The notes beneath the pieces were generated by a model that saw nothing but the letters and a program-made list of their open reading frames with translations, was not told where the DNA came from and made no database searches. Shown piece by piece: positions 2,224 to 4,757 of a stretch of 7,023 nt of DNA; the stretch's first letter is position 1, and each line of letters opens with the position of its first letter. Location: the IMG/VR virus record IMGVR_UViG_2648501841_000009; one strand, written 5' to 3'. This DNA comes from a virus. Its lineage: Duplodnaviria > Heunggongvirae > Uroviricota > Caudoviricetes. The position numbers were made by a program, and so were the translations under genes.

Positions 2224-2268
2224 AATCTACAATAAAAAACTGTTTTTGTGTCAACAGTTTTTAATTGT
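2224..2268 (-). promoter_or_regulatory. PL-like leftward promoter embedded in an operator (OL-like)
   Basis: Inverted repeat ACAATAAAAAACTGT (2229..2243) / ACAGTTTTTAATTGT (2254..2268) with a 10-bp spacer. On the minus strand the spacer carries TTGACA (plus 2249..2254) and TAGATT lies 19 bp downstream (plus 2224..2229). Near-identical to the site at 3264..3302. Confidence 0.45.
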
Positions 2269-2319: not shown

Positions 2320-2607
2320 TCAGATAGAGAAGGGAAATTGTCGCCGAGAATGTGTCACGCTTACAATCTCAATGCTTGAAGCAGCTACTCTGTACAGGAT
2401 TATGTAGTTAGGGTGGGTCACGATCTCTCTCAATCCAGAAACCCGTTCGCTTGGTGGATATAAGTACGGATGCTCAGATAGAGGTAATACCGATGTTTCA
2501 ATGCGTATTTTTAGTCTACGTGCTGCCGGTGGGTTCTCCTTGGCGATGTAAGTTATGATCTGGCGCAAATCATCGCGAGCAGACGGTAGCCATAAAATGG
2601 GTAACAT
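2320..2607 (-). CDS. parE: ParE/RelE-family type II toxin (95 aa), ParE2-like
   Basis: Product MLPILWLPSARDDLRQIITYIA...GLREIVTHPNYIILYRVAASSIEIVSVTHSRR shows the ParE-family pattern as I recall it. Its ATG overlaps the stop of the upstream antitoxin gene (TAATG). Confidence 0.9.
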   Translation of the reverse strand: MLPILWLPSARDDLRQIITYIAKENPPAARRLKIRIETSVLPLSEHPYLYPPSERVSGLREIVTHPNYIILYRVAASSIEIVSVTHSRRQFPFSI

Positions 2608-2798
2608 TACTCGCTCTTGTTAGTTACAGCAATTTGAGCAATAAGATTTTCCATTTCAGCCATTACCTCGTCATGTGGAATTGCGGGGCGAGTGTCTGCA
2701 AGGCTTGACGTTACTTTAGTGCGCAACCATTCGTTGTAACTGTTTTCTTGTTCGGTAGTTTCGAATTCTGAAACTATCGGAGAAAGGGCTGTACCCAT
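2607..2798 (-). CDS. paaA: PaaA2-like antitoxin (63 aa)
   Basis: GAGGAG about 9 nt upstream of ATG 2798..2796. The 63-aa product with SPIVSEFETTEQENSYNEWLRTKVTSSLADTRPAIPHDEV resembles the PaaA2 antitoxin of E. coli O157 as I recall it. It sits immediately upstream of and coupled to the ParE-like gene. Confidence 0.8.
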   Translation of the reverse strand: MGTALSPIVSEFETTEQENSYNEWLRTKVTSSLADTRPAIPHDEVMAEMENLIAQIAVTNKSE

Positions 2799-2825
2799 GG
2801 CATAACTCCTCTTCTTGTACTGTGG

Positions 2826-3227
2826 TCACGCCCGGCGGCTTTTTTGTGCCGCCAGCCACCTAGCAATGGTTTCTTCCATTGATTTTTTCTTGTCTTTGAT
2901 TTCTTGAAGCATTTTTTCTTGGTCTTCCTCAGGAAACGCACTAAAAGCTTGGAGCAGTTCGCGTTGGCGAGGACCAATTTTCATCGTGTCAGGGGTGAAA
3001 ATTTGCTCACACTCTTCAGGAGGCAATAAAAACCAATGCAATGGATGCCCTGAAACCTCAACCAGTTTATCCAAACTTGAGGCTTTAGGTGTAGCCTTAC
3101 CGCTGACCCATTGTTGAACAGTTTGTTGTGTCACACCAATTCTACGGGCAAGCTCAGCCTGGCTCCATCCAGTTTCCTGAAGAAGCTTGCTGATTCTGTA
3201 CATAGATACTTCTAGGGCGCTCATCAT
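2826..3227 (-). CDS. paaR: XRE-family HTH repressor, PaaR2/DicA-like (133 aa); likely the prophage immunity repressor
   Basis: N-terminal HTH (SQAELARRIGVTQQTVQQWVSG). It is the first gene of the leftward three-gene operon and is divergent from a Cro-like gene. Start is ATG 3227, with a second ATG at 3224; a possible alternative start at 3203 cannot be excluded. Confidence 0.85.
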   Translation of the reverse strand: MMSALEVSMYRISKLLQETGWSQAELARRIGVTQQTVQQWVSGKATPKASSLDKLVEVSGHPLHWFLLPPEECEQIFTPDTMKIGPRQRELLQAFSAFPEEDQEKMLQEIKDKKKSMEETIARWLAAQKSRRA

Positions 3228-3233
3228 TATTCA

Positions 3234-3262
3234 ATTTTACAGGTAAATACTGTTAAAAGCAT
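3234..3262 (-). promoter_or_regulatory. PRM-like promoter predicted to give a leaderless repressor mRNA
   Basis: Minus-strand TAAAAT (plus 3234..3239) lies 6 nt upstream of the repressor ATG, placing the predicted transcription start on the A of the start codon. No Shine-Dalgarno is present and the -35 (ATGCTT, plus 3257..3262) is weak. Confidence 0.4.
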
Positions 3263-3263
3263 C

Positions 3264-3302
3264 ACAATAAAAAACTGTTGATTGCATACAGTTTTTTATT
3301 GT
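3264..3302. promoter_or_regulatory. OR-like operator: perfect 15-bp inverted repeats separated by 9 bp
   Basis: ACAATAAAAAACTGT (3264..3278) - TGATTGCAT - ACAGTTTTTTATTGT (3288..3302). It sits between the divergent repressor and Cro-like genes and has a near-copy at 2229..2268. Confidence 0.6.
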
Positions 3303-3307
3303 AGGTT
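3278..3307 (+). promoter_or_regulatory. PR-like rightward promoter for the ydaS/ydaT-like operon
   Basis: TTGATT (3278..3283) inside the operator spacer, 18 bp, then TAGGTT (3302..3307). An alternative -10, TATAGT, is at 3313..3318. GAGGAGG (3324..3330) precedes ATG 3336. Confidence 0.4.
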
Positions 3308-3335
3308 TTGCTTATAGTTTTTAGAGGAGGGCAAA

Positions 3336-3608
3336 ATGCTAGATAGCACTCGCGAAAAAATTAGGCAGAAATACACTCAGGCTGAAATAGGTCGTTATAT
3401 GGGGGTCGCTCAACAGACTGTTTGGCAATGGTTTAGCTTTGGCGTTCCCCCAAAGCAGGTAATTCCGTTATGCCAACTAATGAAGTGGGAAGTTACCCCG
3501 CATGAAATCCGCCCAGATATTTATCCTAACCCAACCGACGGTTTACCTGTTGGATGTAAGGTTAACACATCAAATGCGCCGGAGTTGATTCATGAAAATC
3601 AAGCATGA
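3336..3608 (+). CDS. ydaS: YdaS-family Cro-like HTH regulator (90 aa)
   Basis: Strong RBS. HTH QAEIGRYMGVAQQTVWQW followed by a VTPHEIRPDIYP tail that I recall as typical of the YdaS family. Divergent from the repressor. Confidence 0.85.
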   Translation: MLDSTREKIRQKYTQAEIGRYMGVAQQTVWQWFSFGVPPKQVIPLCQLMKWEVTPHEIRPDIYPNPTDGLPVGCKVNTSNAPELIHENQA

Positions 3609-4017
3609 ACACATCCGCATGGCGATGAATGTCTGGGCGCATCCGGACGGCGAAAAAGTACCGGCTGCGAAAATTACCAAAGCGTATTTCGAGCTGGGAA
3701 TGACGTTCCCGGAACTGTATGACGACAGCCATCCGGAAGCCATGGCTCGCAATACTCAGAAAATTTTCCGCTGGGTGGAGAAAGACACTCCTGATGCGGT
3801 TAAAAAAATTCAGGCGTTGTTACCAGCGATCGAAAAAGCGATGCCGCCTCCGCTGGTGGCCCGAATGCGCAGCCACAGTTCCGCTTATTTTCGGGAGTTG
3901 GTAGAGACGAAGGAACGGCTGGTGAAAGATATTGATGATTTCGTTGCATCAGCGATCGTTCTGTTCGATCAGATGAATCGTGGTGGCCCGGCAGGAAACA
4001 CTCTGGCTGTGCATTAA
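3592..4017 (+). CDS. ydaT: YdaT-like protein (141 aa), at the cII position
   Basis: Starts MKIKHEHI as I recall for the YdaT family. Overlaps the end of the ydaS-like gene by 17 nt. Confidence 0.8.
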   Translation: MKIKHEHIRMAMNVWAHPDGEKVPAAKITKAYFELGMTFPELYDDSHPEAMARNTQKIFRWVEKDTPDAVKKIQALLPAIEKAMPPPLVARMRSHSSAYFRELVETKERLVKDIDDFVASAIVLFDQMNRGGPAGNTLAVH

Positions 4018-4030
4018 TTGGGTAATAAAT

Positions 4031-4540
4031 ATGAGTAATGACAAAAAATTGACACTGAGCGTTTACGAAAACAGTCCGCACATCTGGCGTGGCGGTTTAT
4101 CTGATGTGGAGCTGGCAGAGTGGTTGATACATAAAGCTAATGCGCTGCTCTGGCGTTTGTCAGCCAGAGAACAGCGCAAGGAAACCAGAATAAAGCTGGC
4201 TGATGCAGAAGCGTGTGCCGGGCTTATTGAGGATTATACAAATCTTGGTATTTCTTCAGCAGAGAGTGATCCCATTCAGCCTCTGAGCAGGGAGTCAATC
4301 CAGCACGCTGGTTGTATGGCACATCTTGTAACTGCTCGTCAACATGAGGTGGGTATTGGATCACTTCCGGCGGGATATTCGCTGATTCCAGAGCTGGTTG
4401 AAGCAAGAAAATCAGTTCAGAAAAAGAGAGATGACGCACTTCAATTATTGAGAGAGCACTATGGCGCGATACCAGAATGCGAACAGCGTCGATACCCTGA
4501 AGGTTATGAATGGATGCAGTCTCTTTTTGAAGTTCGCTAA
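4031..4540 (+). CDS. hypothetical protein (169 aa), function unknown
   Basis: ATG 4031 lies 13 nt after the ydaT-like stop with only a weak RBS. Long ORF in the rightward operon with protein-like composition; I recognise no motif. I take the real start as ATG 4031, not the upstream GTG at 3980 used in the ORF track. Confidence 0.6.
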   Translation: MSNDKKLTLSVYENSPHIWRGGLSDVELAEWLIHKANALLWRLSAREQRKETRIKLADAEACAGLIEDYTNLGISSAESDPIQPLSRESIQHAGCMAHLVTARQHEVGIGSLPAGYSLIPELVEARKSVQKKRDDALQLLREHYGAIPECEQRRYPEGYEWMQSLFEVR

Positions 4541-4757
4541 TCAATATGTCGAGACGAAGGTATGTTTCGGCGCGCAGCCAGGCTCTGTAATCCGGGAGCA
4601 TTTCGGGGCTGTTACACCAGCGGTTTGTTGCTGCAACATTTAATACATGAGCCTGATAAAGGCTTTTCAAAAAATACATGTCGAACCTCCTCTGGTTCTG
4701 TCGATTGGGAACCACAGATTATATCCGGAGGAAGGTTCGGCACCAGATGAGGTAGCC

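Follow-up and report, generated by a model that had tools for sequence, protein, structure and literature searches.

A 7,023-nucleotide stretch of tailed-phage DNA (Caudoviricetes; IMG/VR record IMGVR_UViG_2648501841_000009; referred to here as the window) carries a repressor gene followed by an antitoxin and a toxin gene. This arrangement raises two questions: to which prophage does the operon belong, and is the lysogenic state tied, through the antitoxin, to the survival of the host cell?

Gene layout and genomic origin

The initial annotation had described three co-oriented genes with a 27-bp gap, a TAATG overlap and a terminator, and all of these, the last as a terminator-like hairpin, were found where it had placed them. 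The three ORFs lie on the minus strand in the order regulator-antitoxin-toxin, and the main features of the operon and of the divergent genes are as follows.

2826..3227, minus strand: paaR1-type repressor gene (133 aa, as in the RefSeq annotation)
2607..2798, minus strand: paaA1-type antitoxin gene (63 aa)
2320..2607, minus strand: parE1-type ParE-family toxin gene (95 aa)
2301->2279, minus strand: terminator-like hairpin TCCCTGTTTCGAGGGA followed by T7, 18 nt past the parE stop (putative function)
3336..3608, plus strand: Cro-like ydaS-family gene (90 aa; Pfam YdaS_toxin, E=8e-10), divergent from the repressor
3592..4017, plus strand: ydaT, CII-analogue activator (141 aa; Pfam YdaT_toxin, E=1.2e-9)
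3585..3602, ydaS/ydaT junction: YdaT operator OM TTGATTCATGAAAATCAA, an exact match to TTGATTN6AATCAA

The stop codon of the repressor gene (TGA, 2826-2828) is separated from the ATG of the antitoxin gene (2796-2798) by 27 bp (2799-2825), which hold GAGGAG (2811->2806) 7 nt upstream of the ATG, while the antitoxin stop and the toxin start overlap in TAATG (CATTA on the plus strand, 2605-2609). Given this short gap with its ribosome-binding site, the overlap, and a hairpin located solely after parE, the sequence is compatible with co-transcription of the three genes, which, together with repression by PaaR, has been demonstrated for the sister locus paaR2-paaA2-parE2. The hairpin was kept in E. 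coli O157:H7 Sakai and in IHE3034 (operon 91% identical), where sequence differences extend the stem and the predicted energies were -9.6 and -13.8 kcal/mol, respectively, versus -7.5 in the window. The window's own stem is weak, and a terminator scan returned two such sites in the window versus 1.8 expected in shuffled sequences, which alone is not significant. A 131-aa ORF at 1923-2318 is doubtful as a real gene, since it spans a run of N and RefSeq has only a 51-aa DUF1391 gene there. The same gene order was seen in divergent relatives, namely, exonuclease, dicB, DUF1391, ParE, PaaA and repressor, facing cro-like, ydaT and replication genes.

The window was 99.9% identical to prophage Sp4 of Sakai, which is the same element as CP-933M (PMC2884950). 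Only seven differences were found over its whole length, including position 2296 (terminator loop), position 3306 (putative PR -10) and a 1-nt deletion in a replication gene, and none of them fell inside the operon. The latter corresponds to Sakai Sp4 genes ECs_1067-1069, with the repressor (ECs_1069) annotated as 'phage repressor protein'. It was 100% identical in all 15 sampled genomes, which were the highest ranked, and 438 records matched at 99% identity or more (at least 99%). The paaR-paaA-parE loci occupied exactly two places in the O157 genomes listed; in Sakai, the locus of the window is in Sp4 and the PaaR2 locus is in Sp12. CP-933M has been reported to carry a homologue of paaR2-paaA2-parE2 (PMC8630535).

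We therefore assign the feature, with high confidence, to paaR1-paaA1-parE1 of Sp4/CP-933M, a defective lambdoid prophage found in E. coli O157:H7, and we extend this confidence to its architecture, its proposed addiction function and its proposed YdaT back-up, as set out below. PMC8630535 and PMC4803016 credit the name to Hallez et al. 2010, and the number 1 is given to the Sp4 locus on the basis of such secondary citations and of elimination; one paper uses the variant 'paaR1-paaA1-parE3'. Protein searches against PaaR2, PaaA2 and ParE2, which the initial annotation had proposed, found similarity for all three products (37%, 62% and 67% identity, respectively). These values, together with the map position in Sp4, rule out that the operon is paaR2-paaA2-parE2 of CP-933P/Sp12 itself. 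Thus, the resemblance to that O157 system suspected from the start is a true relatedness, but the locus is not merely similar to an O157 locus: it is one, the paralogue located in Sp4/CP-933M. The expectation that the operon was probably not novel was also correct, as it had already been described and is unchanged across many O157:H7 genomes; the locus is already known. Within the collection of deposited phages, a single record, phage Evi (regulator of 372 nt, parE without annotation), had a ParE of this kind, and it was of the PaaR2 type, so that no PaaR1 type was found there in an isolated phage.

The repressor and the toxin-antitoxin pair

The antitoxin matched Pfam PaaA2 (PF21217; E=5.6e-19, 68.3 bits versus a cut-off of 27) and the PaaA2 structure 3zbe (E=1.4e-20), with no other domain and, specifically, no DNA-binding domain. 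The toxin matched Pfam ParE_toxin (PF05016; E=2.9e-17, 63.5 bits versus a cut-off of 23) and the ParE2 chain 5cw7_B (E=3e-36). These matches are far beyond chance, and the two proteins belong to the PaaA and ParE families. Identity to the sister proteins was unevenly distributed. In PaaA, residues 1-45 were 82% identical and residues 46-63 were 11% identical (the 62% given above is the overall value), and in ParE, the corresponding values were 49% for residues 1-39 and 81% for residues 40-92 (67% over the 92 aa). The divergence of the PaaA C terminus and of the 39 N-terminal residues of ParE fits the lack of cross-neutralisation between the two O157 systems reported in a review. According to Hallez et al. 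2010, as cited, the toxicity of ParE, which is SOS inducing and nucleoid associated, is relieved by the cognate antitoxin in both systems. For the sister pair paaA2-parE2, post-segregational killing and plasmid stabilisation have been observed (PMC8630535), and PaaA2 is broken down by ClpAP/ClpXP.

The repressor (Pfam HTH_3, E=2.3e-12, likewise far beyond chance; Phage_CI_repr, E=7.4e-5) combines a 434-cI-like HTH at its N terminus with a C-terminal domain of ca. 50 aa that is common to PaaR2 and DicA-like repressors. When the PDB was searched, the best matches were 434 repressor chains, with helix 3 (TQQTVQQ) aligned to TQQSIEQ of 434, and only generic HTH domains (434 cI, HipB) were recovered, with no PaaR structure among them. 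The Pfam search of the 133-aa protein found no Peptidase_S24 domain, which sets it apart from SOS-cleavable repressors of the LexA/CI type; PaaR2 is likewise stated to be without an S24 peptidase domain. The C terminus is conserved with PaaR2 (common motif ELLQxFSAFPE..Q...SME..IARW.AAQK.RRA), while the N terminus is unrelated. The locus thus has the three-component paaR-paaA-parE order, with an HTH regulator bearing the conserved PaaR C-terminal domain. Against the NCBIfam DicA model (NF007257), residues 11-130 aligned to model positions 9-131 of 135, with a score of 51.5 bits, below the cut-off of 101. Judged by its sequence, the repressor is a DicA relative and, by NCBI's criterion, not a DicA member.

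Operators, promoters and the immunity region

The initial annotation had placed the operon at a prophage immunity locus with a pair of operators. The pair exists, as a perfect inverted repeat, ACAATAAAAAACTGT-N9-ACAGTTTTTTATTGT, at 3264-3302 and a near copy at 2224-2273. The placement also held, given that the repressor is divergent from cro-like and cII-like genes, that operators recur in the interval between them, and that another operator/promoter set lies past the operon. The operon is flanked by two clusters of ACAR-N7-YTGT sites, three to its right and two to its left, and these regions hold the following features.

3239..3302: right operator region (OR-like), sites 3239-3253, 3264-3278 and 3288-3302, centre spacings of 25 and 24 bp
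2224..2268, minus strand: putative left operator/promoter (OL/PL-like), ACAR-N7-YTGT sites 2229-2243 and 2254-2268
2254->2224, minus strand: putative leftward promoter, PL-like, TTGACA (2254->2249)-N19-TAGATT (2229->2224), 10/12 consensus matches
3278-3307, plus strand: putative PR, TTGATT (3278-3283) and TAGGTT (3302-3307), as read from the sequence
3239->3234, minus strand: putative PRM -10, TAAAAT, from which transcription would begin with the A of the repressor start codon

The window held five exact ACAR-N7-YTGT sites versus 0.54 expected (none of 200 shuffles reached five), with the pattern defined from four of the five and the remaining site (3239-3253) an independent match at the expected spacing. 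In IHE3034, the three OR sites were identical and both left sites were kept. A more distant relative, in E. coli 23CRST049 (72% identical), was rejected as a test of the motif: it had no ACAR-N7-YTGT site, a different recognition helix and its own ACACTTxTAAAGT-like repeats, and it is a third immunity type.

A scan for consensus sigma-70 promoters found none in the right intergenic region, and a more lenient one gave a clear PL, while its candidates for PR and PRM were either weak or had alternatives. The PL-like promoter is directed at the DUF1391-ydfB-...-dicF-dicB genes, a layout analogous to that of PL933P in the sister prophage CP-933P (PMC8630535). On the 5' side of the repressor, TAAAAT ends 6 nt before the ATG (3227), there is no Shine-Dalgarno sequence upstream, and the -35 is poor; an alternative, TTAACA-N19-AATAAT, would start transcription inside the ORF. 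If TAAAAT is the -10, the repressor mRNA may be leaderless, as demonstrated for lambda cI and PaaR2.

On the other side of the region, the Cro-like protein had only 20% identity to YdaS of CP-933P, and its helix AQQTVWQW is similar to TQQTVQQW of the repressor. YdaT, in turn, was 86.5% identical to its CP-933P counterpart, with no difference in the first 50 residues. The operator sequence reported for YdaT, TTGATTN6AATCAA (PMC9986795), occurred once in the window (0.07 expected), and the same 18-mer is present in Sp12. Moreover, positions 3581-3720, which start just upstream of this operator, were 100% identical to Sp12 over 140 bp.

The region resembles those of lambda and 434 in having a repressor and a cro gene divergent around three operators, a further group of operators ca. 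1 kb away, accompanied by a promoter (putative in Sp4) that points leftward, accessory genes co-transcribed with the repressor (as predicted for Sp4), and a recognition helix that retains the Gln-Gln...Gln of the 434 repressor. The half-sites of the 434 operators are ACAA, which those of Sp4 (ACAA/ACAG) resemble. However, the Sp4 repressor is without the S24 autocleavage domain, its operators are 15 bp rather than 14 or 17 bp, an unrelated POU-like YdaT takes the role of CII, and a toxin-antitoxin pair stands in place of rexAB. There is also a likeness to DicA-DicC/dicB of the K-12 prophage Qin, with DUF1391 (ydfA-like), ydfB, the DicF RNA and dicB downstream of the leftward promoter; Qin is not known to have a toxin-antitoxin pair after dicA. 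The positional equivalence with the dicA region of Qin has been stated previously (PMC8630535). The closest system is paaR2-paaA2-parE2/ydaS-ydaT of CP-933P/Sp12 (PMC8630535; structures 3ZBE, 5CW7, 5CZE and 5CZF), with the same gene order, spacing logic, place in the immunity region, and OR plus OL/PL. In contrast, the repressor HTH, the Cro-like protein and the operator sequences of the two prophages are unrelated, and the Sp4 and Sp12 prophages should therefore be heteroimmune.

Regulation, addiction and cross-talk

By analogy with CP-933P and from the sequence, a DicA/434-cI-like repressor without a RecA-cleavable domain would be transcribed from within the 108 bp that separate its gene from the divergent cro-like gene, and it probably binds the three 15-bp ACAR-N7-YTGT operators there as well as the two located ca. 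1 kb away, just past the toxin gene. It would thereby shut down both the ydaS-ydaT-replication operon (rightward) and the DUF1391-ydfB-dicF-dicB operon (leftward) and regulate its own synthesis. The same transcript would encode ParE and the labile PaaA, which has no DNA-binding domain, with translation of ParE probably coupled to that of PaaA via TAATG, and the pair would occupy the place of lambda rexAB. Addiction would then arise when this stretch of DNA is lost or replaced: PaaA would disappear through the action of Clp proteases, and ParE would be freed. As a back-up, YdaT bound to its operator would activate a PRE-like leftward promoter, so that the operon would be transcribed even in the Cro-like state. 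Given that this operator and positions 3581-3720 are identical to Sp12, the same route is expected in the Sp4 locus. Operator binding by PaaR2 and YdaS, PL, PRE, a bistable switch, plasmid stabilisation and Clp dependence have been described for the sister locus, and their transfer from CP-933P to the Sp4 copy is by architecture only, with HTH, Cro and operators unrelated in sequence.

The pair could instead act mainly against other phages, by abortive infection or exclusion, as a functional and positional counterpart of rexAB and not as a prophage stabiliser. Many type II toxin-antitoxin systems defend against phages, and this pair lies where rexAB does, with the repressor on one side and OL/PL on the other, and would be expressed, like rexAB, from the lysogenic promoter. 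Yet the sole phenotype shown for PaaA-ParE in the literature examined is post-segregational killing and plasmid stabilisation, and we consider a mainly antiphage role unlikely.

The initial annotation had proposed a more direct coupling, in which any event that shuts off the repressor operon would also stop antitoxin synthesis and so couple the lysogenic state to an addiction module. In its simple form, with lysogeny thereby tied to killing, the claim was unsupported, since toxin-antitoxin genes of the sister locus are transcribed in both states of the switch and PRE provides a second route (PMC8630535). The corresponding switch, in which closing the repressor promoter (Cro-like state or induction) ends antitoxin synthesis and ParE kills or arrests the cell, would agree with the lability of PaaA2 to ClpAP/ClpXP and with the absence of an evident promoter between repressor and paaA, where the 27-bp gap holds only a ribosome-binding site. 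Nevertheless, transcription of the sister pair is appreciable in either state, the fractions of SOS-positive cells were equal between states (0.88% versus 0.95%), and addiction was seen upon DNA loss and not upon flipping of the switch, which released no toxin (PMC8630535). The YdaT-activated PRE also feeds the operon from the other side, and the Sp4 locus has the same YdaT operator, with identical adjoining DNA, all of which makes such a switch rather improbable. It is least probable, to the point that we set it aside, that PaaR and PaaA form the split antitoxin of an ordinary self-regulated operon and that the repressor is not the immunity repressor: although many antitoxins have HTH domains, HipB and MqsA are among the weak repressor matches, and a review describes partial repression of the paaR promoter by the PaaA-ParE complex, the repressor lies at the cI/dicA position opposite cro-like and cII-like genes, the operator motif is also present at another promoter, which is directed towards dicF/dicB, the full-length, sub-threshold DicA match fits an immunity repressor, and PaaR2 has been directly demonstrated to repress PR and PL.

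Addiction upon loss of the DNA, with transcription of the operon backed up through YdaT, remains our preferred reading. Since positions 3581-3720 and the first 50 residues of YdaT are identical, YdaT from either prophage should activate both PRE-like promoters, and hence both repressor-toxin-antitoxin operons; the conserved C-terminal domain of PaaR might also allow mixed PaaR1/PaaR2 oligomers. We propose tentatively, as somewhat short of an even chance, that Sp4/CP-933M and Sp12/CP-933P are cross-wired in this way. No mention of such cross-talk was found in the literature examined, and 'CP-933M' is absent from PMC9986795.

The locus itself adds little: it is a named toxin-antitoxin system that has been validated by experiment and that hundreds of O157:H7 genome sequences carry without change, and its regulatory logic, with operators and Cro-like and YdaT-like inputs, has already been published for the sister copy. 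What is of modest use is a concrete map of the operators and putative promoters that would underlie the immunity specificity of CP-933M, together with the abrupt mosaic junction located at the YdaT operator, from which cross-talk in regulation is predicted between the two prophages that share a host.

An O157 repressor-antitoxin-toxin operon in prophage Sp4

The three co-oriented genes that the initial annotation had placed at 2320-3227 were all recovered there, by ORF listing and by direct sequence reading, together with the 27-bp gap (2799-2825) between repressor and antitoxin and the TAATG overlap between antitoxin and toxin (CATTA on the plus strand, 2605-2609). Within the gap, GAGGAG lies 7 nt upstream of the antitoxin ATG. 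The two genes facing the operon were assigned by family search.

Genes of the immunity region
2320-2607, minus strand: toxin gene, 95 aa
2607-2798, minus strand: antitoxin gene, 63 aa
2826-3227, minus strand: repressor gene, 133 aa
3336-3608, opposite strand to the operon: YdaS-family Cro-like gene
3592-4017, opposite strand to the operon: YdaT-family gene

The toxin matched both Pfam ParE_toxin (E=2.9e-17) and, among solved structures, ParE2 of E. coli O157:H7 (5cw7_B, E=3e-36), and the antitoxin matched Pfam PaaA2 (E=5.6e-19; no other domain in the Pfam search) and the solved PaaA2 (3zbe, E=1.4e-20), confirming the family assignments first made from sequence. The NCBI pipeline names the antitoxin "RelB family antitoxin" (NF050103, 92 bits), while Pfam and the solved structures place it in the PaaA2 family. 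The N-terminal domain of the repressor is HTH_3/Phage_CI_repr, no S24 peptidase domain was found in the Pfam search, and its closest solved relatives are 434 repressor chains. The NCBIfam DicA model spans its full length, but at 51.5 bits the match is sub-threshold (curated cut-off, 101).

Many E. coli O157:H7 chromosomes carry the operon region at 99.9% identity, and the operon alone was 100% identical in all 15 of the best-ranked genomes sampled. It was matched at 99% identity or more by 438 records, and some relative was found in 833 of 5,426 complete E. coli genomes. In strain Sakai, the counterparts ECs_1067 (plasmid stabilization system protein), ECs_1068, and ECs_1069 (phage repressor protein) lie inside the annotated "prophage Sp4, lambda-like phage," which is a defective prophage because IS629 and ISEc8 interrupt its late region. 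The equivalent prophage in EDL933 is CP-933M (PMC2884950).

The O157 genomes listed had exactly two paaR-paaA-parE places, which in Sakai are Sp4 (the locus of the window) and Sp12. The characterized paaR2-paaA2-parE2 belongs to CP-933P, which is identical to Sp12 of Sakai (PMC8630535). The window is not that system, because PaaR2 starts with MQKKE and the repressor of the window does not. Given that the other of the two places is the paaR2 copy, the locus is taken to be paaR1-paaA1-parE1, by elimination and from secondary citation of Hallez 2010. The proposed identification by resemblance to paaR2-paaA2-parE2 was essentially right, except that the locus is the paralogue (system 1) rather than something merely resembling system 2. 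The operon is already known.

Elsewhere in the window, a 1-nt deletion at 5297 shortens an A-run (A7 versus A8 in Sakai) and breaks the gene for the O-like replication protein (363 aa in Sakai, ECs_1073) into ORFs 4647-5399 and 5387-5848; this is a real frameshift or else a sequencing error in the homopolymer. The N runs at 2104-2113 and 5876-6007 do not preserve length (10 N for 46 nt of Sakai and 132 N for 88 nt), and ORFs crossing them, among them 1923-2318 and 5845-6645, cannot be relied on in those parts. The minus strand at 4224-4679, between ydaT and the replication genes, encodes an "ECs1072 family phage-associated protein" (NCBIfam NF033230, E=2.1e-30). This gene is antisense to a plus-strand ORF of 186 aa that matched no family, and it is missing from the equivalent position of Sp12.

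Operators, promoters, and terminator

Candidate control elements
2301 to 2279, minus strand: hairpin TCCCTGTTTCGAGGGA followed by seven T
2229 and 2254: left ACAR-N7-YTGT sites (n = 2)
2254 to 2224, leftward: predicted promoter TTGACA-N19-TAGATT
3239, 3264, and 3288: right intergenic ACAR-N7-YTGT sites (n = 3), centers 25 and 24 bp apart
3278 to 3307: predicted ydaS promoter TTGATT (3278)-N18-TAGGTT (3307)
3585-3602: YdaT operator

The hairpin begins 18 nt past the toxin stop, where a terminator had been proposed. The scan found 2 hairpin-type sites versus 1.8 expected from shuffles, and the stem in the window is weak (-7.5 kcal/mol). The same hairpin has a longer stem in Sakai (-9.6 kcal/mol) and in IHE3034 (-13.8 kcal/mol), a strain carrying a 91%-identical operon, and because these differences extend the stem, the comparison supports its reading as a terminator. 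Positions 2296 and 3306 are two of the seven differences between window and Sakai; the former (C in the window, G in Sakai) costs the stem one base pair, and the latter, in the predicted PR -10 TAGGTT, is T in the window and C in Sakai and IHE3034.

Repeat finding located ACAATAAAAAACTGT-N9-ACAGTTTTTTATTGT, an inverted repeat without mismatches, at 3264-3302, and an almost identical copy of it just past the terminator, at 2224-2273. Every arm fits ACAR-N7-YTGT, which has five exact matches in the whole window versus 0.54 expected (none of 200 shuffles reached five), although the pattern was derived from four of these sites and the sole independent match is the fifth, at 3239-3253. In IHE3034 all three right-hand sites are unchanged despite the 91% operon identity, substitutions there being confined to the between-site spacer and downstream of the third site, and both left-hand sites still match. 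The repressor helix TQQTVQQ retains the three glutamines of TQQSIEQ in the 434 repressor, whose half-sites are ACAA. The helix of the Cro-like protein is AQQTVWQW, which fits competition of the two proteins for the same sites.

The predicted leftward promoter (10 of 12 matches) is embedded in the left operators and aims at DUF1391, ydfB, DicF RNA, and dicB; the ydaS promoter, from sequence reading, has the same layout. The repressor probably also silences the cell division inhibitors DicF/dicB, as DicA does in Qin. Downstream of the leftward promoter, the DicF antisense sRNA is at 631-682 (Rfam RF00039, 76.9 bits) and dicB at 257-445, both on the minus strand. A TAAAAT ends 6 nt short of the repressor ATG, without a Shine-Dalgarno sequence, suggesting a leaderless mRNA, with an alternative promoter also possible; leaderless repressor mRNAs have been demonstrated for PaaR2 and lambda cI (PMC8630535). 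The published YdaT operator, TTGATTN6AATCAA (PMC9986795), has a single exact match in the window (0.07 expected).

Mosaic relationship with Sp12 and other relatives

Compared with the Sp12 proteins (ECs_2277-2281), identity was 67% for ParE, 62% for PaaA, 37% for the repressor, 20% for YdaS, and 86.5% for YdaT. DNA similarity was limited to three pieces: part of parE (2331-2480, 75%), a segment from the 5' part of paaA to the 3' end of paaR (2665-2891, 76%), and 3581 rightwards (88%). The block at 2892-3580 (repressor HTH, intergenic operators, and Cro-like gene) is unrelated and, judged from sequence, represents a classical swap of the immunity cassette. The joint on its right falls just upstream of the YdaT operator, an 18-mer identical in both prophages. 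Window 3581-3720 is 100% identical to Sakai Sp12 (44135-44274 of the stretch compared), with unrelated DNA directly leftward, a pattern suggesting that the co-resident prophages have recombined and are under common YdaT control. PaaA was 82% identical over residues 1-45 versus 11% over 46-63, and ParE 81% over residues 40-92 versus 49% over 1-39; we infer that PaaA 46-63 and ParE 1-39 may determine which toxin pairs with which antitoxin, and so account for the absence of cross-neutralization that has been reported.

Gene order (exonuclease, [DUF1482], dicB, DUF1391, ParE, PaaA, and repressor, facing cro-like, ydaT, and replication genes) is kept in divergent relatives, for example 23CRST049 (72% identity), JNE120393 (PaaR2 type), and IHE3034 (91%). 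E. coli 23CRST049 has the repressor-antitoxin-toxin/cro/ydaT layout of the window (3218-4510 of its stretch). Its recognition helix (AQQSVQKW) and its ACACTTxTAAAGT-like operator repeats, at both OR and OL, are unlike those of the window and by these features it is a third immunity specificity with the same toxin-antitoxin (TA) module. Since it has its own helix and operators, the module travels with several specificities. A ParE of this kind was present in only one of the deposited phage genomes, that of phage Evi (LR597642.1), which is of the PaaR2 type. Its ParE2-like ORF (3501-3776; 67% identical to the ParE of the window by tblastn) is unannotated in the record, though the record does annotate the regulator and PaaA-like genes upstream.

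Control of the operon and fate of the toxin

By analogy with experiments on CP-933P, the repressor would keep both early promoters, rightward and leftward, switched off and tune its own, and the Cro-like protein, competing for its sites, would create a bistable switch. YdaT on its operator would turn on a PRE-like leftward promoter, re-feeding the repressor-TA operon. PaaA would be Clp labile and ParE a nucleoid-associated, SOS-inducing toxin.

The initial annotation had supposed that shutting off the repressor would free the toxin, coupling lysogeny to addiction. In this simple form, the idea is not borne out by the sister locus, where both switch states show transcription of the TA genes and SOS-positive fractions are equal (0.88% and 0.95%) (PMC8630535). 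Because the YdaT/PRE segment is identical, the same outcome, no toxin release on repressor shutoff, would be expected for the window copy. The sister PaaA-ParE stabilizes DNA bearing the pair (mini-F stabilization), and its authors propose that it guards the immunity region from loss or recombinational replacement (PMC8630535). What is mildly new here is a map of the operators and promoters of this immunity type, together with the predicted sharing of YdaT/PRE control by the two O157 prophages.
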